This document shows positions 2,419 to 34,843 of a DNA stretch of 64,000 bases, in pieces. Within the stretch, counting starts at the first letter, position 1, and every line of letters starts with the position of its first letter. Below the pieces are notes generated by a model. The model was not told the DNA's origin. It searched no databases and saw nothing but the letters and a program-made list of their open reading frames with translations. The stretch is from IMG/VR virus record IMGVR_UViG_3300017991_000009, positions 31,167 to 95,166 of that record, one strand, 5' to 3'. The position numbers and the translations under genes are program-made. Source of the DNA: a virus.

Positions 2419-2626
2419 TCGAACCAAGCTCATCGACGTGAGCGAGGAGATCGAGGTATCCCCAATTAGGCTGGCCGGTCAGGTTACCCGGTGGCAAGCA
2501 ATCGCTACTATCGATAAGGAGGCGGGTGACGATCATCTTGTCGGTGTTGGTTACCGGCCTGTTAAAGCAATCACTAGTTGGTTGGACGAAAAAGTTACGG
2601 CGAAGGTGCGATCATGCCTGCAGTGA
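2381..2626 (+). CDS. hypothetical protein
   Basis: GAGG RBS; fills the gap between flanking genes. Confidence 0.5.
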   Translation: MAKVKVVFQVWDDRTKLIDVSEEIEVSPIRLAGQVTRWQAIATIDKEAGDDHLVGVGYRPVKAITSWLDEKVTAKVRSCLQ

Positions 2627-3093
2627 GAATCAAGCATAGGGATGTCACCGCGGCCCGTGACCAACTCTACGACGAGATCTTGGATGAGGGGTGCTACTGC
2701 CCCTGCTGTGATCGGTACGCACGGGCCTACGCCAGGGCAATCAACCACACGATGGCGCGGGCTCTAATCTGGTTGTGCAGGGAGTACCGGCGCACGGGTG
2801 AATGGGTCGACGTGCCGAAGACCGCGCCGCGGTGGCTAGTTAGGTCCAACCAGCTTCCTACCTTGAAGTATTGGGGCTTGGTGCAGCGGAAGCCCAACAA
2901 CGACCCTGCCAAGAAGTGTAGTGGGCTATGGCGCCCTACTCCGCGTGGCCGCAGGTTCGCTGGGAGCAGGATCAGGCTGAGGAAGAAAGCATTGGTCTAC
3001 AACGATCGCGTGCTTGAGTACCAGGGAGAGTTTATCTCGGTTGTCGATGCACTTGCACACCACTTCGACTACCGCGAGTTGTGGGAGGGGTAG
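2614..3093 (+). CDS. phage winged-helix-like DNA-binding protein with CPCC motif
   Basis: CPCC...LKYWGLV...GLWRPTPRG pattern seen in phage wHTH-like proteins. Confidence 0.55.
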   Translation: MPAVRIKHRDVTAARDQLYDEILDEGCYCPCCDRYARAYARAINHTMARALIWLCREYRRTGEWVDVPKTAPRWLVRSNQLPTLKYWGLVQRKPNNDPAKKCSGLWRPTPRGRRFAGSRIRLRKKALVYNDRVLEYQGEFISVVDALAHHFDYRELWEG

Positions 3094-24000: not shown

Positions 24001-25671
24001 ATGACCACAAAACGCAAACGTGCTGCCCGCACGGCTAAAACCCCGGCGGACGCCGATCGTATCCAACTAGAGGCGATCGACAAGAAGGGGCAGCGGCGGT
24101 CGGTTACTCTGAAGGCCACGATAATTGACGGGCCCGAGGATGAGCCTCCGCGCCTGGACGAGGGGCCCACTAGCGCCGCTGACGAGCGAGACCCCTTCAA
24201 GAGCCAGTCGTTGGGTAAGCACCGCATCATTGATCCACCCTACAACCAGCGGAACCTCCTCACCCTGAAGGAGAAGTCCAACGTGTTAACGTCGTGCGTG
24301 AACAGCATGGTGACTAACACAGTGGGCTTTGGCTGGCGACTCAGGGAACGCATCATGCCCGATGATCTCCGGCGGAAGTTCGAGTCCGAGATCATACGGG
24401 AGAAAATGTCCCTCCTCACGTGGCTTGAATCGGTGCATCCTACCGAGTCGTTTACCGCGTTGCGTGAGCAGGCGAAGGATGACCAGCACTCCTGCGGCAA
24501 CGGTTACCTCGAGTTGATCGAGAATAAGGCAGGACGCCTGGTCGGACTGAACCACGTACACGGCCACTGCATCAGGTTGTGTGAACGGCAGAAACGCGCC
24601 GTGAAGGTAGACGTACCGCGCATCCGGCCGGATAAGAACTTCATGATCGAGGACGTCGCTATGTGGCACCGCTTCAGGAAGTTCGTCATGATGGTCGGCA
24701 CCAAGCCTCTCTTCTTTAAAGAGGCAGGCGATCCAAGGATGTTGGATCGCTACACCGGGGAGTACGGCAAGGACATCCCGTTCAACTGCCGCGCTACCTC
24801 ACTCCTCCACTTTAAGAACTACTTCGCGGCATATGCCTACGGCCTCCCTGTCTGGATCGGAGACACCCTCTCCGTAGTGGGGAGCCGCGAGGCGGAGGAA
24901 GTAAACTACGCCACTCTCCGCAACAACTCGATCCCATCGATGTTTGTCATAGTGGAGAACGGGTCACTTACCCAGGAATCGGTTGACCGCCTGCGGGAGT
25001 GGACGGAGCAGCAAATCCAGCGGTCGGCGAACCGATCGAAGTTCATCATCCTGGAGGGTGAGACTTCTGACGAGGGGATCATTAATCCCACCGACTTCAA
25101 GATCAAAGTCGAGCCCTTGAAGCAACTCCAGCAAGAGGACCAACTCTACCAGGAACTCGACAAGAACAACCGAGACAAGGTGCGGCAGGCTTTCCGTCTG
25201 CCGCCCATCTTTGTTGGTCGGGCCGACGACTACACTAGGGCCACGGCCGACACCAGCCGCGATATCGCAGACGAGCAGGTGTTTGCCCCGGAGCGGAACG
25301 GTGATGACTTCAAGACCAACCGCTTCATCCTCTTGCCCCTGGGTTCTCGGTTCCACGTGTTCCGATCGAACCATCCGAACATCACTGACGACATCGAGTT
25401 GATCCGCCTGATGGGCATCGCCGAGAAGTCTGGCGGTATGACCCCGCGGCGTGCCGACCGAATCATCCGTGATGTGTTCGGTGATGATATAGGGCCGATG
25501 CCCACCGGCATTGACCTGGACAAGCCCTTTACTATCACGTTCGCCGAGGCTCAGCAGGGCGGTACACTTGCGCAAGGCAACGCGAACGCAGACCGAGTTA
25601 TTGACGGCCTGCTCAACTTGCGTGAGAAGATAGAGGAGGAGCTTGAAGAAAGGTTGTACCACGAGGAGTAA
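24001..25671 (+). CDS. portal protein (PBSX/XkdE-like)
   Basis: IDPPY, GNGYLE, YGLP.W, AFRLPPIFVGRADDYTRATA, EQVFAPE motifs. Confidence 0.9.
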   Translation: MTTKRKRAARTAKTPADADRIQLEAIDKKGQRRSVTLKATIIDGPEDEPPRLDEGPTSAADERDPFKSQSLGKHRIIDPPYNQRNLLTLKEKSNVLTSCVNSMVTNTVGFGWRLRERIMPDDLRRKFESEIIREKMSLLTWLESVHPTESFTALREQAKDDQHSCGNGYLELIENKAGRLVGLNHVHGHCIRLCERQKRAVKVDVPRIRPDKNFMIEDVAMWHRFRKFVMMVGTKPLFFKEAGDPRMLDRYTGEYGKDIPFNCRATSLLHFKNYFAAYAYGLPVWIGDTLSVVGSREAEEVNYATLRNNSIPSMFVIVENGSLTQESVDRLREWTEQQIQRSANRSKFIILEGETSDEGIINPTDFKIKVEPLKQLQQEDQLYQELDKNNRDKVRQAFRLPPIFVGRADDYTRATADTSRDIADEQVFAPERNGDDFKTNRFILLPLGSRFHVFRSNHPNITDDIELIRLMGIAEKSGGMTPRRADRIIRDVFGDDIGPMPTGIDLDKPFTITFAEAQQGGTLAQGNANADRVIDGLLNLREKIEEELEERLYHEE

Positions 25672-26370: not shown

Positions 26371-27378
26371 GTGGTAGGTCTGAATCCCACAAACCTCACC
26401 ACCGAGGAGTTGTGTGACCTGGGGAGTGCAATTGACTCCACGTTGTGTGTCGTGCTCAAGGTCGCGCCTCGGAGGGAGTCTGAGATCATCGAAGGTCGAA
26501 TTGCCTCGACCATCGGTAGAGCTTGGAAGTCCACGGCGAATGCCGCGACCAACTCCGGCATAGCCAAACTCCTCAAGGGCCCTTTCACTGACCGGCGGAT
26601 CACCTCCTTCCTGAAGTCCTTGGGTGTGAAGCTGAAGACCCCCCTCACCAAGACCCAGATCAAGGTGATAGAGAAACGGCTCCAGTCTATCTGGAGGATC
26701 GCTAAGAAGTGGGCGGCGAAGGAGGCCAAGATCTCCTTCTCCTTCTCTCACGTTGATCAGCGAGCAGTCGCCGCGATCAACAGGCACCAGGTGTTCTGGG
26801 TAGGTGACTTCTACAACGACAAGTTGTCCCGCAGGATACGGGCCGTGTCTGAGGATGTCCTCCTTCGGCGCGGCCTCTCGCATAAAGAGGCGGGGGCGGT
26901 GCTAAGGAGAACTCTTCGCAGGGAGTTCGGTATCCTCCCTGGCGGTAAGACTAGGTTCGCGCCCACCGTCCCCGCTCGCTATGCGGGAAACCCCGATCTC
27001 TACTTCCGACAGGTAGCGTCAACCGCGGCGCACCAGTCGAGGACCTTCGGCACGTTGACCGCGTTCAGCGAGGCGGGGGTAACCAGCTACCAGCTTATCA
27101 ACCCGGATGACGAGCGTACCGGGCAGATCTGTCAACAGATGAGCGGGCAGGTTTTCTCCGTACAGACGGGGGTGCGGCAGATGAATCGCATCCTTGGAGC
27201 GAAGGACCCGAAGGACGTGAAGAAGATCGCCCCGTGGTTGTCAGGTGACGACATCGAGGCGGCCCTCGCGGGTGCACGCACAGGCAGCCAGCAGGCTACG
27301 GATAGGCTTGCCGCTGCAGGTGCGATCCTTCCGCCGTTCCACGCTTTGTGCAGGACAGATATTGTGATTCCGAGCTAG
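26371..27378 (+). CDS. head morphogenesis protein (Mu gpF / SPP1 gp7-like)
   Basis: DDERTGQIC...PPFHALCRT C-terminal motif; follows the portal. Confidence 0.8.
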   Translation: MVGLNPTNLTTEELCDLGSAIDSTLCVVLKVAPRRESEIIEGRIASTIGRAWKSTANAATNSGIAKLLKGPFTDRRITSFLKSLGVKLKTPLTKTQIKVIEKRLQSIWRIAKKWAAKEAKISFSFSHVDQRAVAAINRHQVFWVGDFYNDKLSRRIRAVSEDVLLRRGLSHKEAGAVLRRTLRREFGILPGGKTRFAPTVPARYAGNPDLYFRQVASTAAHQSRTFGTLTAFSEAGVTSYQLINPDDERTGQICQQMSGQVFSVQTGVRQMNRILGAKDPKDVKKIAPWLSGDDIEAALAGARTGSQQATDRLAAAGAILPPFHALCRTDIVIPS

Positions 27379-27380
27379 TC

Positions 27381-27722
27381 ATGAAGAAGCGGACTACGAT
27401 ACAAACTCTCATCTTTGACAAGGCAAAGTTTCCTACGAGGGACTCGGTACGTAAGTGGATCAAGGCTCATGGATTTCACATCATGCGCCAAAAGGAGAAA
27501 GTGACGAAGCCGGGTATTGACGAAACCGCTGGTAGCTTTAGAGTGCGCCAGAGGGCGCCTAGTGATTTCGTGCGAGGGTCGTTCAGAACGATTAATATTA
27601 CTGATGGAGTGAAAGCTGTTATCGGAAGGCTGAAGTCTAGCGTGAAGAAAACGGGCGTAGTACTTGAAGTAAAAGGCCCCTATGACTTGCTGGATATATT
27701 GGAGGAGTTATGTGGCGATTAG
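27381..27722 (+). CDS. small head-associated protein
   Basis: QTLIFDK..F...W...HGF...RVRQ..P..F..GSFRT..I..GVKAVIGRLK, recalled from phage head loci. Confidence 0.55.
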   Translation: MKKRTTIQTLIFDKAKFPTRDSVRKWIKAHGFHIMRQKEKVTKPGIDETAGSFRVRQRAPSDFVRGSFRTINITDGVKAVIGRLKSSVKKTGVVLEVKGPYDLLDILEELCGD

Positions 27723-28075
27723 AGAAAGCGTTCAAATTTGAGGCAGCACATTCCCTGCCTTATCACCGTGGTAAGTGTAAGCGGGTACACGGCCACTCTT
27801 GGCATGGGAAGGTAGTCCTTGAGCGTAACGATCTTACCGAGGATGGCCCCGAGGCGGGAATGGTCACTGACTTTGGGAAGGTAAAGGAGGTGATTGACCA
27901 GGTGTTAGACCAGTACCTCGATCACCTGTTCCTCAACGAATCTACTGGGATGCGCAACCCCACCTCGGAGCTACTTGCGAAGTGGCTCTACGATCACTTG
28001 AAGGTTCGCCTGCCGTACCTCGCGGCGATCGTCATCCAGGAGACGGACTCGAGCACCTGCGAGTACCGACCGTAG
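27710..28075 (+). CDS. queD: 6-carboxy-5,6,7,8-tetrahydropterin synthase
   Basis: FEAAH, CKRVHGHSW, LDH..LN, PTSE.LA, ET motifs. Confidence 0.92.
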   Translation: MWRLEKAFKFEAAHSLPYHRGKCKRVHGHSWHGKVVLERNDLTEDGPEAGMVTDFGKVKEVIDQVLDQYLDHLFLNESTGMRNPTSELLAKWLYDHLKVRLPYLAAIVIQETDSSTCEYRP

Positions 28076-28078
28076 GCG

Positions 28079-28681
28079 ATGCTGGGGAAGAGGTACATAG
28101 TCAAGGAGATCTTCTACTCCCTACAGGGAGAGGGGATGCGTGCAGGCGAGGCTAGTGTTTTTGTCCGCTTCGCTGGTTGTAACCTTAACTGTAGGAAGGA
28201 GACGCATGGTTTCGACTGTGACACCGACTTCAAGGGCGGTGTGAAACTGACCGCGGAAGGGGTACTCGAGGCAATCAAGAACGTCAACGAGCACTGTCGC
28301 TGGATCGTGCTGACCGGCGGGGAGCCCGCCGTGCAGTTGGATTCGGCACTCGTTTCTGTTCTGAAGGCCGCTGGCTATAGCCTGGCGATCGAAACCAATG
28401 GTACAAAGGCCTTGCCCGAGGGGCTTGACTGGATATCAGTTTCGCCGAAGCCCGGTACCTGCCTGGAGCAAACGAGAGCGATGGAGGTGAAATATGTCCT
28501 ACGTGCTGGTGACCTTTTGCCTACGCGGTCAGAGATTAAGGCCGCTTACTATCTATTGAGCCCCGCCTTTGAGGGAAACACTCTGCCCCAGGATAACCTG
28601 CGGCACTGCATCAACCTCTGCCTGGGTAACCCCAAGTGGATCCTTTCTGTCCAACTACACAAGCTAATAGGTGTGAGATGA
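28079..28681 (+). CDS. queE: 7-carboxy-7-deazaguanine synthase (radical SAM)
   Basis: EIFYSLQGEG, FVRFAGCNL, CDTDF, TGGEP, ETNG, VSPK, QLHK. Confidence 0.92.
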   Translation: MLGKRYIVKEIFYSLQGEGMRAGEASVFVRFAGCNLNCRKETHGFDCDTDFKGGVKLTAEGVLEAIKNVNEHCRWIVLTGGEPAVQLDSALVSVLKAAGYSLAIETNGTKALPEGLDWISVSPKPGTCLEQTRAMEVKYVLRAGDLLPTRSEIKAAYYLLSPAFEGNTLPQDNLRHCINLCLGNPKWILSVQLHKLIGVR

Positions 28682-29235
28682 GTGAAGATCTAGTACGAGA
28701 GATGATTCTAGCGATTGGTGACGACCCCGACCGAGAAGGTCTGAAGGAAACACCCAAGCGGGTGGTGAAGTCGTGGGCTGAGTTGTACTCAGGCTACAAC
28801 GCGGATGCGGCTGAGTACTGCAAGGTGTTCTCCGCGACCTATGATCAAGTAGTGGTGTTCAAGGACATCGACTACTTTTCAATGTGCGAACACCACATGC
28901 TGCCTTTCTTCGGGAAGGTGTATATCGCCTACTTGCCTGCAACCAACGGCAAGCAGGGGGCCAAGGTGATCGGGGCGTCTAAGATGGCCCGAATCGTGAA
29001 CGTGTTTGCACGCAGGTTGCAGATACAGGAGCAGATGACTCAACAGGTCGCGGAAGCGATCCAGGAGATGATTCACCCGAGGGGGTTGGCAGTCATCGTG
29101 GATGGGATGCACCTTTGCATGATGGCAAGAGGCGTGAGTCAGCAACACGCCACGATGCGAACCAGTGCCATGTGGGGCCTCTATCGAGAGGACCACAGGG
29201 CGCAGGCTGAAGCCCTTCGGTTGATGGGGTTTTAG
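28678..29235 (+). CDS. folE: GTP cyclohydrolase I
   Basis: REGLKETPKRV, SMCEHHMLPF, SKMAR, RRLQIQE, HLCMMARG. Confidence 0.95.
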   Translation: MSEDLVREMILAIGDDPDREGLKETPKRVVKSWAELYSGYNADAAEYCKVFSATYDQVVVFKDIDYFSMCEHHMLPFFGKVYIAYLPATNGKQGAKVIGASKMARIVNVFARRLQIQEQMTQQVAEAIQEMIHPRGLAVIVDGMHLCMMARGVSQQHATMRTSAMWGLYREDHRAQAEALRLMGF

Positions 29236-29236
29236 G

Positions 29237-29980
29237 ATGCCAAAGATCATCCTTGCCCCGCACCTAGATGACGAGGTGATCGGCTGCTACTCCATCCTCG
29301 GAGAAGTGGACCGAATCGTGTACTTCACAAGCGACTATCGTGAAGAGAACCTGCCCGATGATCGCTACGAGAAGTTCAAGGGCACACTGCCCCACGGCAT
29401 TGCTGAGGCCGACACGGTATTCCTCCCAAGCAGGTTCGACCACCATCCCTTTCACCGATATGTCCGCAACGTCGGGCTCGGGCTTCCTGGGATCAAGTGG
29501 TTCTATAGCGTTGAAATGAACGTACCGTGGTTAGAAGAGGAAGCGGACCCTGACGGGAAGTGGGCCATGATGGAACGGCTTTACCCGCAGGAGGTACCAC
29601 GGCTCGTTGATCATAAGTATCGGCTGTTCAAGAGTATCAAGCCGTTCGACGAAGTGATCCGGGCTAGCGTGAAGATCGTCATTGAAAGGTGGCACCGCTG
29701 GCCCGCTGCACCGGAGAAGGTCGCGTTCTTGCGCAACCTCCACCGCCACTTGTTCCACGTCAACGTGCGCGTTCAGCAGTTCCAAGACGACCGCGACCTT
29801 GAATACTTCCTGTTGAGGGAAGAGGTGGGAGAGATTGTCAACGGGTTCAAGTGGGAAGAACGCACCAGTTGTGAAATGCTAGCCCTTAGCGTAAAGCGAA
29901 CATTGGAAATGAGGTACCTCGACCGAATGGTTCAGGTATCAGTCTATGAGGACAACGAAAACGGATGCGAGGTGGAGTGA
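29237..29980 (+). CDS. PIG-L/LmbE-type deacetylase fused to a DpdL-like (QueD-like T-fold) domain
   Basis: N-terminal APHLDDEVIG and DHHPFH; C-terminal HRWP.AP...LRNLHRHLF (LxxxHRHxF), DRDLEY, SCEM, EDNENG. Confidence 0.75.
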   Translation: MPKIILAPHLDDEVIGCYSILGEVDRIVYFTSDYREENLPDDRYEKFKGTLPHGIAEADTVFLPSRFDHHPFHRYVRNVGLGLPGIKWFYSVEMNVPWLEEEADPDGKWAMMERLYPQEVPRLVDHKYRLFKSIKPFDEVIRASVKIVIERWHRWPAAPEKVAFLRNLHRHLFHVNVRVQQFQDDRDLEYFLLREEVGEIVNGFKWEERTSCEMLALSVKRTLEMRYLDRMVQVSVYEDNENGCEVE

Positions 29981-30714
29981 TGAAACACGTAGGCGAAAAC
30001 AAACACGTAGGCGAAAACATCGTCGATATAGCCAATGAGGGCCGCAAGCTCAACCTGTTTCAGGTTGAGGTAACCAACATATGCAACGGCAAGTGTGAAT
30101 ACTGCCCACAGTCGACAATGAAACGAAAGGCGGGGTATATCTCGCCTATGGTGTACCGCTCGGCGCTTCACGCAATGGAGAACGACGCCTTCCACCTGCA
30201 TGGGCACGGGGAAACCTTGATGCACAAGCAGGTGGTTGAGATGGTGGACCTTGCCACCAGCTTGGGTAAGGAGGTCGGGTTTTCAACCAACGGCTCCCTT
30301 CTCACGCAGGAGAAACTCGATGCGTTGGCCCAGGCCGGGTTGAAGTGGCTCCGTCTGCACGTCGGCCCGTTCGGTGTGCGGCTCAACCAGTTCAAGGTAC
30401 CCGAAGGCTTGATCGCCACCGAGCACCGGGTGGGCGATAACGGTCCCGAGGAGGTTGAGGACAAAGGGATGACTTCGTGGGGTGGTTGGGTGGATGGTGT
30501 CGAGGAAACAGGAGGGGCTGACCGCTGCTCCTTTTTAGGGTACCCCAACGGCAAGGAGTGGCGGTGCTTGCTCTACGACGGAACGGTAACTTTGTGTTGC
30601 GTTGACTACGAAGGTGGTGCTACACAAAGTGACATCTGTAGCAAGTGCCGTGGGTTTGTTTTCAGGAGCCCTCGCGATTGGGGAAACTATGACGGCGAAG
30701 GCTGGGAATTCTAG
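29980..30714 (+). CDS. radical SAM protein with a SPASM/twitch-like C-terminus
   Basis: CNGKCEYC, GHGETL, STNG, C...DGTVTLCC.D...CSKC. Confidence 0.85.
   Translation: MKHVGENKHVGENIVDIANEGRKLNLFQVEVTNICNGKCEYCPQSTMKRKAGYISPMVYRSALHAMENDAFHLHGHGETLMHKQVVEMVDLATSLGKEVGFSTNGSLLTQEKLDALAQAGLKWLRLHVGPFGVRLNQFKVPEGLIATEHRVGDNGPEEVEDKGMTSWGGWVDGVEETGGADRCSFLGYPNGKEWRCLLYDGTVTLCCVDYEGGATQSDICSKCRGFVFRSPRDWGNYDGEGWEF
29983..30018 (+). repeat. 18-bp in-frame tandem duplication
   Basis: AAACACGTAGGCGAAAAC x2 (KHVGEN KHVGEN). Confidence 0.9.
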
Positions 30715-30723
30715 GAGCGAATC

Positions 30724-31164
30724 ATGAATACGAAAGTGCAAGCGGCAAAGCATGTGATTGCGGACGCGATAGCGAAACACGATCACCGAATCTACGTGGC
30801 GTACTCAGGCGGCAAGGACAGCCAGGCTCTCCTGCGGTTGGTGCGCTCGGTCAACCCCCACGCCCTGGTCGTGCACAATGGCTACGAGGGTGAATCGGTC
30901 GAAGACGAGTTCGGCATCTTGAAGGTCAAGCCCCCCAAGGCAGAGACCGTGCCGAAGTTCATGGAGGCGGTTGACCTTGGTGCGCAGTTCGATGCAACGC
31001 GCCGCGCCGAGAACAAGCTGGTGTGTATCGACGGCAAGGAGATCCACCGCAGCAACATGACCGGCCCCTACACCGCAAAAGGTTACTTCGGGCTGGAAGT
31101 CTACTTCCCTCTCTGGGACTGGTCAGACGAGGAAGTGCTGACCTTCTTGGAGGTGAGCGAATGA
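30724..31164 (+). CDS. compact PP-loop protein, PAPS-reductase-like (adenine nucleotide alpha-hydrolase fold)
   Basis: AYSGGKDS, TRRAE, PLWDWSDEEV; only 146 aa. Confidence 0.75.
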   Translation: MNTKVQAAKHVIADAIAKHDHRIYVAYSGGKDSQALLRLVRSVNPHALVVHNGYEGESVEDEFGILKVKPPKAETVPKFMEAVDLGAQFDATRRAENKLVCIDGKEIHRSNMTGPYTAKGYFGLEVYFPLWDWSDEEVLTFLEVSE

Positions 31165-31691
31165 AGGTTGACCGCTGCCACTACAGTTATGACGGCGAGG
31201 GAGATCTAATCGGTACCAAGACCTTCTTTTGTCACTACCCAGGTGAGACCTCAATCGAGCAGTTTGACTTGAGCAAGGTAGGGGCGGTCTTTGTCAATAC
31301 GGACACCCTTGACGAGACCCTTGGAGGGTGGATCGACCGTTGCGGTAAGATAGTGACGGTTGAGGTAGACGGGGAGGTGTTGAACACGACGCCCGCCGTA
31401 ACCATCGACCTTGATGGTGCGAGGCTGTTCGTTGTCGTGGATCGCTTTTTCCCGCACCTCGTCAACTTCACTGGGTTCGTAAAGGTTAGAGTAATGGCCG
31501 AAGCTAACCTCCCTGAGTGCTTGAGGCTGGCAAATACCTACGCGATGCAAGGGCGGCAAGTCCTCCTGATGCCCGAGTTTACTGACATCGGGCACAAGGA
31601 GGTAGGTGAGGTCATGATGGGGATCTACGATGAGGTCCACCCGCTGGTGCGGGTCATGCCTCCAGTTCAGTTCCTCTTGGGGGTGAAGTGA
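31161..31691 (+). CDS. degenerate QueE/NrdG-like protein lacking the Fe-S cysteines
   Basis: SYDGEG..IG..TFF, VTVEVDG, VLLMPE and RVMPPVQFLLGVK echo QueE segments; no CxxxCxxC. Confidence 0.5.
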   Translation: MKVDRCHYSYDGEGDLIGTKTFFCHYPGETSIEQFDLSKVGAVFVNTDTLDETLGGWIDRCGKIVTVEVDGEVLNTTPAVTIDLDGARLFVVVDRFFPHLVNFTGFVKVRVMAEANLPECLRLANTYAMQGRQVLLMPEFTDIGHKEVGEVMMGIYDEVHPLVRVMPPVQFLLGVK

Positions 31692-32758
31692 TGCTCTACT
31701 ATCTGCCTATCGAACCGCTTGAGGAGAGGTACACCGAGCAGTGGTATCGGTGGTTCCCGGAAGAGTTCAAGCGGCAAGGGATTCGCTACCAGACTATCGA
31801 CGGGGAGACCCTCGTTGATGAGGTTCAGGTAGGGACGTTTCTGGACGTGAACTCAACGCTCTATTACAAGGCAGAGCAACTCAGGCGTGTCGCCAAACTC
31901 TTTCACCATGGGTTGATCGAGAGTGGTGACAAGTTCTTTGTGGCGGATGTCGAGTTTTGGGGTATCGAAAGTATCAGGTACCTCGCCACCCTCAACAAGG
32001 TGGACGTGGGGATCCTCGGGTTCTGTCACGCAGGGAGTTACACGGTTGAGGATTTCATGGAACCGTGCGCACCCTTCGCTCACCACTACGAGACCGCTTG
32101 GGGATCGGTCTTTGATATGATCTTCGTTGGGAGCGAGTACCATAAGCGTATGCTGGTGGAAAAGCGGAAGCTGCCCGCTGACAAGCTCATGGTTACCGGC
32201 AACCCCTACGATGCGTCAGAAGTGCCTAAGCTGAACCTCCCTGTGAACCACACACGGGTCATCCTCACCAATCGCCCTGACCCTGAGAAACGTCCCGAGG
32301 TCACACTGAAGGTTTTCGCTCAACTTAAGAAACAACACCCCTCTTGGGACTTTCTGGTGACCACTGGCCGCAAACAGTGGGGCTCGGGTGCCGTTAGAAA
32401 CACCGCCCTTGCCCTGCGGGACCAGGGTGTGATCACCATTCACGAAGGTATCTCAAAAGGCGAGTACCTCGAACTGCTAGCAAGTAGCCGCGTCATGACA
32501 GGGAACACCATTGAGGAGAACTTCGGGTATTGCGTCCTGGAGGCCCTTTTGGTTGACACCATCCCTGTTGTGCCGAACGACTTTAGCCACCCTGAACTAC
32601 TCCAGAATGACGAAAGGTGCCTCTTTGACACTACAGGTCGTCAGATGACCTTGATCGAACGTGCAATAGAGGATCCTTTTTCCGTTCTAGGGTATAGTAA
32701 GCGGTACGAGGATTCGCTTGCGGCGATAGTGCTAAGTATCAAGGAGGGCCGACCATGA
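31691..32758 (+). CDS. GT-B (GT4-like) glycosyltransferase
   Basis: EPLEERYTEQW, HAGSY, R.DPEK.P, EENFGYCVLEA (Ex7E), PVVP. Confidence 0.85.
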   Translation: MLYYLPIEPLEERYTEQWYRWFPEEFKRQGIRYQTIDGETLVDEVQVGTFLDVNSTLYYKAEQLRRVAKLFHHGLIESGDKFFVADVEFWGIESIRYLATLNKVDVGILGFCHAGSYTVEDFMEPCAPFAHHYETAWGSVFDMIFVGSEYHKRMLVEKRKLPADKLMVTGNPYDASEVPKLNLPVNHTRVILTNRPDPEKRPEVTLKVFAQLKKQHPSWDFLVTTGRKQWGSGAVRNTALALRDQGVITIHEGISKGEYLELLASSRVMTGNTIEENFGYCVLEALLVDTIPVVPNDFSHPELLQNDERCLFDTTGRQMTLIERAIEDPFSVLGYSKRYEDSLAAIVLSIKEGRP

Positions 32759-33861
32759 AGTTTTATTTCGTAGCAGGAGCTAACGACTCCGTGAACGTAC
32801 TGTTGGACGAAAAGGTCCGGTCTATCCTCGTGTCCTTCGCCCACTTCAAGAAAAAGTTGCCCGACAGATTGGTTGCAGCGGCCAAGAAAGGCACGATCCA
32901 CCTGATGTTGGATTCAGGTGCATTCACCAACGCAACCAAGCCTGGGCACGTCACCCTTCCTGAGTACATTGACTTCGTGAAATCTCACAAGTCGTTGCTC
33001 ACGGAGTACGTGACCCTTGACGACTTGAAAGCCCGCAGCACCACGGTCAAGAACCTTGCAAAGATACGCGAGGCGGGTCTTGACCCTATGCTGGTTGACC
33101 ATATGTGGTTCCCTTGGTTCGAGAAGTTCCTCGGCCCTGAGTACAAGAAGGGAAAGAAGGTATGCTGGGGAGGCTTGGTATCGCTTGCCCAGAAGCCCTC
33201 GACCACTGACGCCGCAGCCGCGAACATGAACCTCAACGTCCTCGGCAAGAGGATGAAGGAGCGTGGAAGCAGAGCAAGGGCGAAGCCTGTTTCCTCTGTC
33301 CACCTTCTTGGTGTTGGTCAACGCATCAAAGCGTTTCTCGGGTTCTTTGATGTTGTGGACTCAGTTGACTCCACGACTTGGAGGATCGCTGCCCAGAAGT
33401 TCGGTCGGGTCGCGTGGGTAAGCCGCGACGACCAGGGGTGGCCGAAACTTCACACGCCTCACCACACCGAGATACCCGACAAACTGAAAGCCAAACTCAA
33501 GCAACAGGGCTTTGACATATCGAGCCCGAAAGACCGTGACCGCATTGCTATCCGTGCCTTCAAACTCTTTTTCAAGATGGTGGAGGAGCGGTATCAGAAG
33601 GCGAAGCAAGCCGGTGAGGAGATCGCCCAGGTCGCCAAGTCTGAACTCCTGATCAAGGATTCGGAGGCGGTGCCTTCTGGGGACATCATTGAGGTGCTCA
33701 CCTCTGAGTTACCAGAGGATGAAATGATTGCCCTGGTTGGGGACCTTTCGCAGGACCTCAACCCAGAGGACATCAACCCGCCTCTACTGAAAGAAGTCTC
33801 CGACGCCGAGCTACTCCACCTTCACAGGCAACTGCACGGGCTAGGAGGTTCCCATGCCTAG
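32755..33861 (+). CDS. DpdA/TGT-like base-exchange transglycosylase with a C-terminal extension
   Basis: LDSGAFT, VTLDD, WGGLV, VHLLG, SVDSTTW; no Zn-binding CxCxxC; adjacent to deazaguanine genes. Confidence 0.8.
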   Translation: MKFYFVAGANDSVNVLLDEKVRSILVSFAHFKKKLPDRLVAAAKKGTIHLMLDSGAFTNATKPGHVTLPEYIDFVKSHKSLLTEYVTLDDLKARSTTVKNLAKIREAGLDPMLVDHMWFPWFEKFLGPEYKKGKKVCWGGLVSLAQKPSTTDAAAANMNLNVLGKRMKERGSRARAKPVSSVHLLGVGQRIKAFLGFFDVVDSVDSTTWRIAAQKFGRVAWVSRDDQGWPKLHTPHHTEIPDKLKAKLKQQGFDISSPKDRDRIAIRAFKLFFKMVEERYQKAKQAGEEIAQVAKSELLIKDSEAVPSGDIIEVLTSELPEDEMIALVGDLSQDLNPEDINPPLLKEVSDAELLHLHRQLHGLGGSHA

Positions 33862-34843
33862 TGAAGTGATGAGCACTCAGGAGGAGTCGCGAATCAGTGC
33901 CCACCTCCTTGTCGTTCAGGAGATGGTGAGGCGCGGCTTTAGTCACGACACGGTTGACGGGGTAGACGAAGCTACTCAGGCCATGGGTTGCGCTATTGGC
34001 CTGAAAGGTGACGAGCTTGAGTTGCTGGGGCTCACCAAAGCTGCCTTGAGCAAGCAGGTACCGCAGAAAGACGCACCGATGGAGGACAAGCGGAAGGCCC
34101 AGAAGGCAAGGGCTGCCCGGTTCGGCATCGAGGCGCTGGAAGGGAGAGGCGAAAGGCTGTCGTTCCCTGCGGGGTACCCCACAGACTTGAACCTCTACGG
34201 CGACCCGGTGAACCTGATGTTCCCGCTAGACCCAGCGGGGAGGGCTCGCAACGCCCGAGCCAGGTTCAAGCAGTTCGCTGACGACATCTACGAGCAGGAC
34301 AAGTCAAAGCGAATCGTGCACACGCGAATCGTGAAACGCCTCCTGTCTCTAGGGTCTGTACCTTCCTTTGATGAGGACGACCCGCTCGACAAACTGCTAC
34401 CACCTGACGTTCGTAGGCGGTTGCAGAAGTCAGTCATCGAGGTTGACCTTGACGATGACGACACCGAGGTCAACGAGGTCACCCTCATTGCAAAGGCCAC
34501 CGACGACGAACGGCACATTGTACTCGGCGTGGTGCTCGAACCTGACTCAGTTGATACACAGGGAGACACCATCAAGGCCGACGAAATCGAGCGTGCCGCC
34601 CACTTGTGGCTTGCAAGGTTTCAGGATCGCGGACTTATGCACCGCAGGATCGTGAACTCCAAGATCGAGATCTACGAGTCCTACCTTGCACCTGTGAACT
34701 TGACCTTGGGAGGGCAAAAGGTTAAAAAGGGCACTTGGTTACTCATGTACCATGTCCTTGACGACGCCCTCTGGAAGGACATCAAGAGTGGGAAGATCGC
34801 CGGGTTCAGCATGGGCGGATTTGCTAGAAGGGTCAAACTTTGA
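33854..34843 (+). CDS. XkdF-like prohead serine protease with N-terminal accessory (DUF6582-like) domains
   Basis: IVLGVVLEPD..DTQGD, MH, ESYLAP, KKGTWL, WKDIKSGKIAGFSMGG; YGDPVNLMFPLD...RNA upstream. Confidence 0.85.
   Translation: MPSEVMSTQEESRISAHLLVVQEMVRRGFSHDTVDGVDEATQAMGCAIGLKGDELELLGLTKAALSKQVPQKDAPMEDKRKAQKARAARFGIEALEGRGERLSFPAGYPTDLNLYGDPVNLMFPLDPAGRARNARARFKQFADDIYEQDKSKRIVHTRIVKRLLSLGSVPSFDEDDPLDKLLPPDVRRRLQKSVIEVDLDDDDTEVNEVTLIAKATDDERHIVLGVVLEPDSVDTQGDTIKADEIERAAHLWLARFQDRGLMHRRIVNSKIEIYESYLAPVNLTLGGQKVKKGTWLLMYHVLDDALWKDIKSGKIAGFSMGGFARRVKL

Follow-up and report, generated by a model that had tools for sequence, protein, structure and literature searches.

A viral fusion of a minimal PIG-L-like domain with a DpdL-type T-fold domain, and its recurrent association with a GT4-type glycosyltransferase in deazaguanine gene clusters

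The synthesis of 7-carboxy-7-deazaguanine (CDG) by enzymes of the FolE, QueD and QueE families is established chemistry. To our knowledge, DpdL is the only route that has been proposed to 7-deazaguanine in phage DNA. In other pathways, the PIG-L-family enzymes MshB and BshB de-N-acetylate what the GlcNAc transferases MshA and BshA produce, and the same logic of glycosyl transfer followed by deacetylation is found in PIG-A/PIG-L and in the aminoglycoside pair BtrM/BtrD. GT4 enzymes as a class use many donors.

Hutinet et al. (2023, NAR, PMC10516641) gave the name DpdL to CGPG_00067 of Cellulophaga phage phiST and to its homologue in phage ACP17, and proposed that the protein is a CDG decarboxylase. 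The diagnostic change is the replacement of the QueD motif CxxxHGH by LxxxHRHxF, while the genomic criterion is that FolE, QueD, QueE and DpdA are encoded and QueC is not (PMC10516641). The same study reported that phiST DNA contains dDG and that dCDG is a natural phage DNA base. The decarboxylase role remains unproven, founding members included, and heterologous expression yielded no dDG (PMC10516641).

The window analysed here, meaning the whole stretch of 64,000 nucleotides, spans positions 31167-95166 of a virus record that is complete at 95,166 bp and carries direct terminal repeats. It encodes a 7-deazaguanine DNA-modification operon in the order QueD, QueE, FolE, fusion, radical SAM, PP-loop, unknown, GT4 glycosyltransferase and DpdA. 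The genes, and the two domains of the fusion, are the following (positions in the window):

27710..28075, plus strand: QueD (CPH4 synthase; PF01242, 1.5e-32)
28079..28681, plus strand: QueE (CDG synthase, radical SAM; phrog_2076, 2.5e-31; Pfam Fer4_12 and Radical_SAM)
28636..29235, plus strand: FolE (GTP cyclohydrolase I; PF01227, 1.1e-64)
29237..29980, plus strand: fusion gene, mini-PIG-L domain plus DpdL domain (247 aa; open reading frame, about 40 full-length homologues, AlphaFold2)
29237..29650, plus strand: N-terminal domain of the fusion, residues 1-138, minimal LmbE/PIG-L-fold metal hydrolase (structure, motifs, conservation)
29651..29977, plus strand: C-terminal domain of the fusion, residues 139-247, DpdL-type QueD paralogue with a T-fold (Foldseek, VIA, tblastn, phrog_17812)
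29965..30714, plus strand: extra radical SAM protein (PF04055, 1.1e-12; likely start at ATG 29980)
30724..31164, plus strand: small PP-loop (PAPS-reductase-like) ATPase (SGGKDS motif; PF01507, 1.8e-5)
31158..31691, plus strand: conserved protein, function unknown (about 177 aa if begun at ATG 31158; homologues in loci L006, L008 and L014-L017)
31688..32758, plus strand: GT4-type GT-B glycosyltransferase (PF00534, 2e-9; AlphaFold2 pLDDT 93.6; Foldseek)
32755..33861, plus strand: DpdA-like DNA transglycosylase candidate (phrog_887, queuine tRNA-ribosyltransferase, 1.4e-19)

QueC (PF06508) was not found in the complete 95,166-bp genome by a search that was positive in 14 of 14 control genomes. 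With FolE, QueD, QueE and a DpdA-like gene present and QueC absent, the phage meets the genomic criterion for DpdL. The DpdA-like candidate was found via PHROGs; Pfam TGT gave no above-cut-off match to 32755-33861, and phiST DpdA3 used as a query gave no match in the genome. Another open reading frame considered as DpdA (2578-3093) has a sub-threshold Pfam TGT match, lies between Mre11-like and Rad50-like genes, falls in phrog_2693 (unknown function) and was judged spurious.

Three genes separate the fusion from the glycosyltransferase. The extra radical SAM protein, which has weak NCBIfam matches to SPASM-type maturases, was seen only in the window, L006 and L056 among the loci examined. The small PP-loop protein is homologous to a neighbour of the N-domain gene in Xanthomonas phage X1 (E 2e-14), and its gene is present in most loci of the DpdL lineage (the window, L006, L008, L014-L020, L038 and X1); in the fused loci L007 and L009-L013, a tblastn search revealed no PP-loop gene. 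The product of 31158-31691 has no match in Pfam, PHROGs or NCBIfam. It was considered as a QueE paralogue, which was unsupported (BLASTP against the local QueE, E 12; no Pfam match), and it is not homologous to the gene that lies between the N-domain and glycosyltransferase genes in phage X1.

The fusion gene starts with ATG at 29237 and ends with TGA at 29978-29980, giving 247 aa on the plus strand. A single base separates the FolE stop from its ATG, and its TGA overlaps the ATG at 29980 of the downstream gene, so that the gene is translationally coupled on both sides. The AlphaFold2 model, built from a 52-sequence alignment, consists of two domains with a confidently modelled junction (mean pLDDT 93.8, pTM 0.81). 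When this model was searched with an all-against-representatives structural aligner (VIA-align, Z scores), the matches split cleanly, residues 1-138 going to the LmbE/PIG-L fold and residues 138-247 to the QueD/PTPS T-fold. The catalytic residues of both domains are all conserved. No match to the fusion protein was obtained in NCBIfam. The PDB, queried at sequence level with a profile of full-length family members, gave none either, even at E 10; only the N-domain profile yielded hits there, which were weak but aligned correctly.

The best structural match of the N-terminal domain is BC1534 (2ixd_B; Z 10.6, rmsd 2.9, 135 aligned). By chain, it is followed by 3dfi (Z 9.9), 3we7 (Z 9.8) and 1uan (Z 9.8), with 5bmo and 1q7t also matched; by name, the matches include Dbv21 (Z 9.9), diacetylchitobiose deacetylase (Z 9.8), TT1542 (Z 9.8), GalB (Z 9.5), LnmX (Z 8.3) and MshB (Z 7.9). 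These LmbE/PIG-L matches span 131-138 of the 138 residues, and the only other folds matched were two Can2 CARF-domain chains (Z 6.5 and 5.6). In the ESM Atlas, residues 1-138 have as neighbours PIG-L clusters (TM 0.77-0.87) together with viral proteins some 156-179 aa long. In a Foldseek search with the whole model the LmbE match was weak (1uan, E 0.028).

The domain retains the full set of metal and catalytic motifs, as P8-H9-L10-D11-D12-E13 and H70-P71-F72-H73. Fused and stand-alone family members alike have H9, D11, D12, E13 and H73 without exception, and at least 90% of them have H70 and P71. In a profile of 31 N-domain sequences, the motifs APHxDDE and HPxHR align with PHPDD and HPDHR of the Pyrococcus diacetylchitobiose deacetylase (E 0.016). 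By the residue roles in this family (MshB/Dac), H9, D12 and H73 would be the zinc ligands, D11 the general-base aspartate and H70 the transition-state histidine. The Pfam PIG-L model (PF02585) remains below threshold on the fusion (16.5 versus 28.2 bits, residues 5-21 only), and a stand-alone relative (L023:7986-8456) scores 29.5 bits. The N-domain is therefore best described as a divergent, truncated sub-family of LmbE/PIG-L, and from its fold and conserved motif positions it looks catalytically complete. Since it has 138 aa against 219-310 residues in the matched PIG-L chains, it lacks part of the classical enzyme, possibly substrate-binding parts. Its deacetylase activity is inferred only from the motifs and from the pairing with a GT4 enzyme described below; there are no activity data.

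The C-terminal domain has the QueD fold. Foldseek matched it to E. coli QueD (4ntk) with probability 1.0, and the structural matches include 3d7j (Z 11.4), 3qn0 (Z 11.2) and 2dj6 (Z 11.2). Residues 147-246 match phrog_17812 (unknown function, 1.7e-14), and in a tblastn search of 50,697 GenBank phages residues 144-246 matched phiST CGPG_00067 and its Acidovorax phage ACP17 homologue. The identity to CGPG_00067 is 34% in the alignment (E 4e-11 in the local search). The LxxxHRHxF signature is present as L166-R-N-L-H170-R-H172-L-F174, and the conserved residues are H153, H170-R-H172, E215 and E239, the histidine and glutamate positions aligning both with DpdL proteins that stand alone and with the QueD of the same phage. 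Leu166 occupies the position of the catalytic cysteine of QueD (CxxxHGH), and Pfam gave no PF01242 (PTPS/QueD) match to this domain. Judged on its sequence, with Leu166 in place of the cysteine and no PF01242 match, the domain is not a QueD. By homology, published signature and fold, it is DpdL.

The preliminary description of this DNA had proposed a minimal PIG-L domain joined in frame to a QueD-like, DpdL-like T-fold domain. Both halves of that proposal hold, the first by fold, motifs and homology over residues 1-138, the second by fold, signature and homology over residues 139-247, and all the motifs quoted for them are present (PHLDDE 8-13, DHHPFH 68-73, LRNLHRHLF 166-174, SCEM 213-216 and EDNENG 239-244). 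It had asked for a structure prediction, which returned two domains with an LmbE/PIG-L fold in the N-terminal part and a T-fold in the C-terminal part, and it had named two findings that would refute it. One, an N-terminal part without the PIG-L fold, is excluded because residues 1-138 match only LmbE/PIG-L enzymes strongly. The other, an assembly artefact, is excluded by the recurrence of the two-domain form. About 40 full-length homologues (protein clusters, 39-62% identity) were found in independent JGI, ENA, Logan and NCBI assemblies. The fused form also occurs in 15 IMG/VR loci, some only 29-32% identical to the window protein. Because the form recurs in this way, the fusion is neither chance nor an assembly error.

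Among GenBank phages the fused form is absent, no record covering at least 80% of the query in the tblastn search of 50,697 phages. The coupling of the two domains is not obligatory, since DpdL occurs without a PIG-L-like N-domain in 13 of the 16 matching GenBank phage records. The earlier statement that no described fusion of these families was known is in line with the lack of fused GenBank phage records and with the paper that defined DpdL (PMC10516641), in which PIG-L, LmbE and deacetylase do not appear. Our literature searches turned up no paper that connects phage deazaguanine DNA with a deacetylase or a glycosyltransferase. Both domain families are already known; their fusion, the family of viral mini-PIG-L proteins and its systematic pairing with a GT4 enzyme in deazaguanine DNA-modification clusters are not described in the literature searched.

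Relatives of the N-domain are numerous. A profile search of 1.84 billion representative proteins gave 1192 at E ≤ 0.001 and 489 at E ≤ 1e-10. Most are stand-alone proteins of 150-180 aa (typically about 155), and a DpdL domain is present in 14 of 146 newly listed representatives. A scan of 185,579 prokaryote species genomes gave only five N-domain loci, all on MAG contigs, and the family is essentially viral.

Its constant neighbour is a glycosyltransferase. Of the 60 IMG/VR (viral) loci whose N-domain could be scored, 58 also contain a homologue of the window enzyme (31688-32758), usually as the next gene downstream. This pairing spans two types of deazaguanine cluster. The QueC type has the order QueD, QueE, FolE, radical SAM, QueC, an unknown of about 135 aa, N-domain (about 155 aa), glycosyltransferase and DpdA, and the DpdL type the order QueD, QueE, FolE, N-domain/DpdL fusion, sometimes radical SAM, PP-loop, unknown, glycosyltransferase and DpdA. 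QueC lies close by in 33 loci that carry both the N-domain and the glycosyltransferase. The near-universal pairing of a PIG-L-like protein with a GT4 enzyme, which was absent from the preliminary description, is the stronger signal. That description had also argued from the fusion that deacetylation and the T-fold step act in one pathway. The argument gains support from the fused gene always lying between FolE/QueE and the glycosyltransferase/DpdA, and from the occurrence of both domains as separate genes in the same deazaguanine clusters elsewhere.

The model of the glycosyltransferase (pLDDT 93.6) has a GT-B fold of the GT4 type. Its best Foldseek match is MshA (3c4q, 4e-14), and BshA also scores high. 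This likeness counts for a sugar-based role, because both enzymes work with PIG-L-family deacetylases. Glycogen synthase, LmbT, mannosyltransferases and a cyanobacterial pterin glucosyltransferase score in a range similar to MshA, and since GT4 enzymes with other donors score about equally, a GlcNAc donor has not been shown.

Split versions of the system exist in cultured phages. In Xanthomonas phages X1 and BUDD and in Burkholderia phage BCSR5, DpdL, a PP-loop protein, the N-domain (with a C-terminal extension), a glycosyltransferase and a TGT-like protein each have a gene of their own, the glycosyltransferases being 41-44% identical to that of the window. Locus L038 is split as well, in the order DpdL, PP-loop, N-domain and glycosyltransferase, and L056 has the N-domain and DpdL as separate genes in the same deazaguanine cluster. 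In a maximum-likelihood tree of 197 N-domains, 114 stand-alone rows are set apart from a group of 83 rows (SH-aLRT 90). Every one of the 55 fused and 23 extension forms falls in this group, the latter nested among the fused ones. The extensions are 60-90 additional C-terminal residues in proteins of 205-240 aa. The idea that they are degenerate DpdL domains was unsupported by hhalign (probability 12%, 20 columns); because they are nested among fused forms, it is still possible.

The fusion was also predicted as a homotrimer, with a score of 0.89 against 0.01 for the best of three controls. For comparison, 20 of 30 proteins whose structures are pairs of one chain attained that mark, against 1 of 23 with single-chain structures. 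Contacts agreed between runs to at least 92%, and the partner pLDDT was at least 90. The predicted interface consists of the T-fold edge strands 139-146 and 241-247 and of the N-domain segments 66-87 and 94-101. Its tightest contacts are those between strands 139-146 and 241-247, the classic barrel closure of T-fold proteins, so that the result may reflect likeness to solved QueD/PTPS oligomers. Segment 66-87 contains the HPxH motif and segment 94-101 is strongly conserved; on the model, either one may owe its conservation to assembly or to a shared active site. The three-copy prediction supports self-binding without showing it.

Taken together, these features suggest a pathway in which the GT4 enzyme and the PIG-L-like domain form an MshA/MshB-like pair that adds an amino sugar to a deazaguanine and then de-N-acetylates it, coupled to DpdL. 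We regard this pathway as evenly poised between right and wrong. It builds on what was observed directly, namely the identities of the domains, their catalytic motifs, their membership of the operon, the co-occurrence of the glycosyltransferase and the existence of fused and split forms, and it adds by inference the substrate, the donor sugar, the attachment site and the order of the steps.

In this pathway, FolE, QueD and QueE would lead to CDG. The DpdL domain, which keeps the zinc-binding histidines of QueD and has leucine in place of cysteine, would process CDG, decarboxylation to 7-deazaguanine being proposed and unproven, and it may assemble into trimers via its T-fold. DpdA would swap guanine in DNA for the deazapurine. 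The GT4 enzyme, three genes downstream of the fusion, would attach an N-acetyl-hexosamine to the deazapurine, which could be the free base or already part of DNA. As a putative minimal zinc hydrolase, the N-domain would then strip the acetyl group and leave a free amine, by the logic of MshA/MshB, BshA/BshB and PIG-A/PIG-L. The fusion to DpdL may serve to keep the deacetylase on a deazapurine-binding oligomer. Since the glycosyltransferase/N-domain pair works in clusters of the QueC type as well as the DpdL type, one would expect an attachment site that the two bases share. An exocyclic nitrogen is a candidate, by analogy with huimycin. In huimycin biosynthesis HuiG transfers GlcNAc from UDP-GlcNAc onto a 7-deazapurine nitrogen (bioRxiv 10.64898/2026.04.15.718813).

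Several points speak against this pathway. GT4 enzymes with other donors match the glycosyltransferase about as well as MshA does; the LmbE fold supports other chemistry, as in GalB, a hydratase (Z 9.5); the N-domain is short and sub-threshold in Pfam; unsubstituted 7-deazaguanine has no hydroxyl acceptor; 13 of the 16 matching GenBank phage records have DpdL without N-domain or glycosyltransferase; and attempts to reproduce DpdL activity heterologously failed (PMC10516641). A bolder form of the same proposal is that phages X1, BUDD and BCSR5, together with many uncultivated phages, carry an unrecognised DNA base, an amino-sugar 7-deazaguanine whose sugar is installed by the GT4 enzyme and unmasked by the mini-PIG-L protein, linked through the exocyclic nitrogen or as an amide of the CDG carboxylate, the deacetylase being built into the DpdL oligomer in the present phage. 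We put this forward tentatively, as a possibility that we lean against. Since three cultured phages carry the split version, it could be tested directly by nucleoside mass spectrometry.

The same genes could instead work in the manner of mycothiol synthesis. The glycosyltransferase and the N-domain would then make a free amino sugar, and a PP-loop enzyme would adenylate the CDG carboxylate and join the amine to it as an amide. This enzyme would be the small PAPS-reductase-like protein in the present lineage and QueC in the other, while DpdL would bind or present CDG without decarboxylating it. A PP-loop ATPase is indeed found near the N-domain and glycosyltransferase genes in both lineages, either QueC (33 loci) or the small PP-loop protein. 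MshA/MshB/MshC and BshA/BshB/BshC are known to perform glycosyl transfer, deacetylation and ATP-dependent amide ligation. There is precedent in QueC homologues, RoyL among them, which join amines to adenylated CDG (bioRxiv 10.64898/2026.04.15.718813). In addition, dCDG is a natural phage DNA base and the decarboxylase role of DpdL is unproven (PMC10516641). However, tblastn detected no PP-loop gene in several fused loci (L007, L009-L013), the dDG of phiST, a phage with DpdL only, fits decarboxylation (PMC10516641), and the acceptor of the glycosyltransferase would remain unknown. A ligation of this kind thus seems unlikely to us, though it is not negligible.

Alternatively, the N-domain may act on the deazapurine or an intermediate itself, as an amidase, a hydratase or a DpdL helper (the missing factor), with the glycosyltransferase serving independently, for example on another base. 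The physical fusion to DpdL, the location of the HPxH-bearing segment 66-87 in the predicted trimer interface and the presence of the non-deacetylase GalB in the LmbE fold are compatible with such a role, and the truncated N-domain may miss part of the classical substrate-binding region. It is less easily reconciled with the stand-alone N-domains, which are equally common in QueC-type clusters without DpdL (114 of the 197 family rows), or with a constant partner that across 58 of 60 loci is the glycosyltransferase and not DpdL; moreover, phiST makes dDG without any N-domain. We therefore doubt that the N-domain acts in this way. That the fusion is meaningless, two neighbouring genes joined by stop-codon loss or by an assembly or gene-calling error with a perhaps inactive N-domain, is mechanically easy to imagine in an operon whose genes overlap or abut, but it is very improbable and largely refuted by the roughly 40 clusters down to 39% identity and the loci at 29-32% identity, by the standing of fused and extension forms as one of the two main groups of the family (83 versus 114 rows, SH-aLRT 90), and by the conserved catalytic residues of both domains in a model confident across the junction.

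The conserved fusion partner is a concrete candidate for an enzyme that acts together with DpdL. The presence of the mini-PIG-L/GT4 pair in two cluster types, with a family of at least 1192 representative clusters, suggests a whole class of sugar-decorated deazaguanines in phage DNA that is missing from the published surveys of deazaguanine modifications. If the proposal of an added and de-N-acetylated amino sugar is true, it would bear on restriction evasion, type IV restriction, glycosylase defences and the sequencing and enzymatic handling of phage DNA, and a deacetylase built into the DpdL oligomer would explain why lone DpdL was inactive in E. coli.

Among known systems, the actinomycete enzymes HuiG (the huimycin GlcNAc transferase) and RoyL (a QueC-like CDG amide synthetase) offer precedent for GlcNAc on a 7-deazapurine nitrogen and for CDG amides. 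They differ in belonging to small-molecule pathways. Neither a deacetylase partner nor a DNA target was found in the passages of the preprint consulted, and a term search of it (bioRxiv 10.64898/2026.04.15.718813) did not find 'deacetylase', 'PIG-L' or 'phage'.

LmbE/PIG-L enzymes (PF02585), such as MshB, BshB/BC1534, PIG-L, Dbv21 and diacetylchitobiose deacetylase, share with the N-domain the core fold (Z 7.9-10.6) and both motifs, and in the mycothiol, bacillithiol and GPI pathways the deacetylase is likewise paired with a GT4 glycosyltransferase. In contrast to these enzymes, the N-domain has 138 aa rather than 219-310, remains under the Pfam threshold, is almost exclusively viral and lies in clusters for DNA-base modification. 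QueD and 6-pyruvoyl-tetrahydropterin synthase (PF01242) resemble the C-terminal domain in the T-fold, the zinc-binding histidine triad and the edge-strand trimer, which is predicted here. In the fusion, however, the catalytic cysteine of CxxxHGH is replaced by leucine and the Pfam PTPS match is absent, and the phage has a canonical QueD of its own (27710-28075).

The closest relatives are the DpdL proteins of phiST (CGPG_00067) and ACP17. They have the same QueD-like T-fold and LxxxHRHxF signature, their three conserved histidines and conserved glutamates also recur in the C-terminal domain, and they are encoded in the same setting, with FolE, QueD, QueE and DpdA present and QueC absent (PMC10516641). 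The DpdL proteins known so far stand alone and have about 115-125 aa. Here, by contrast, a PIG-L-like domain precedes DpdL, which makes up the C-terminal half of a protein of 247 aa, and the present cluster adds to it a GT4 glycosyltransferase, a PP-loop protein and a radical SAM protein.

The whole modification operon of the viral genome is enclosed by its head-morphogenesis block (window 27348-34843). The portal and its downstream head genes flank the operon on one side and an XkdF-like prohead protease gene on the other, the start of the latter overlapping the end of the DpdA-like gene. The following features are discussed here:

2578-3093, 171-aa ORF of unknown function (phrog_2693), between the Mre11-like and Rad50-like genes
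24001-25671, portal
30724-31164, small PP-loop (PAPS-reductase-like) protein, 146 aa
31158-31691, conserved protein of unknown function
33854-34843, XkdF-like prohead protease

Directly past the stop codon of the gene encoding the mini-PIG-L-DpdL fusion, an 18-bp unit is duplicated perfectly in tandem (2.1 copies of AAACACGTAGGCGAAAAC, window 29983-30019) at the radical SAM gene's 5' end, and KHVGEN is thereby encoded twice. The only Pfam TGT signal of the genome lies in the ORF at 2578-3093 (E 0.005, 30 residues) and is probably spurious.

In DpdL-type clusters, the small PP-loop protein is kept adjoining the mini-PIG-L domain (N-domain). The window copy has a homologue in Xanthomonas phage X1 (E 2e-14), whose gene adjoins that of the N-domain there, and the small PP-loop protein may substitute for the missing QueC. 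The homologue of the 31158-31691 product seems to be fused with this PP-loop protein at certain loci, given that the cluster includes proteins of up to 351 aa. The proposal that ORF 31158-31691 encodes a cluster-less QueE paralogue was unsupported, BLASTP giving an E value of 12 and Pfam no support.

A further protein family of ca. 125-165 aa with a conserved YSPL[VI]IRKY segment is found at L040:7573-7992 and in about 24 further viral loci (e.g. L022, L026, L047 and L068), and no match for it was obtained in Pfam or PHROG. In QueC-type clusters, its gene is most often flanked by QueC and the stand-alone mini-PIG-L gene, and in some loci (L028, L036, L063) the protein has an additional N-terminal domain. 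In one group of loci (L021, L023-L025, L028, L031, L032, L036, L041, L048, L049, L053 and others), the stand-alone N-domain and the GT4 glycosyltransferase (GT) genes occur alongside those for family A DNA polymerase, ThyX, dCMP deaminase, ribosomal protein S21, a DnaJ-type zinc-finger protein and another GT. Here QueC is several kb distant or beyond the fetched flank, and the link to deazaguanine genes is therefore looser.

Some N-domain proteins (205-240 aa) carry a 60-90 aa C-terminal extension without the HRH motif of the DpdL signature, including:

L003:9034-9681, extended N-domain form
L069:6986-7693, extended N-domain form
protein rows P0043-P0052, P0120, P0143 and others, extended N-domain forms

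In the tree, these extended forms fall nested inside the true fusions. Their extensions might be decayed DpdL domains, but the hhalign probability for this is just 12%. In Xanthomonas phage X1, Burkholderia phage BCSR5 and viral locus L038, an extended form occurs together with a separate DpdL gene.
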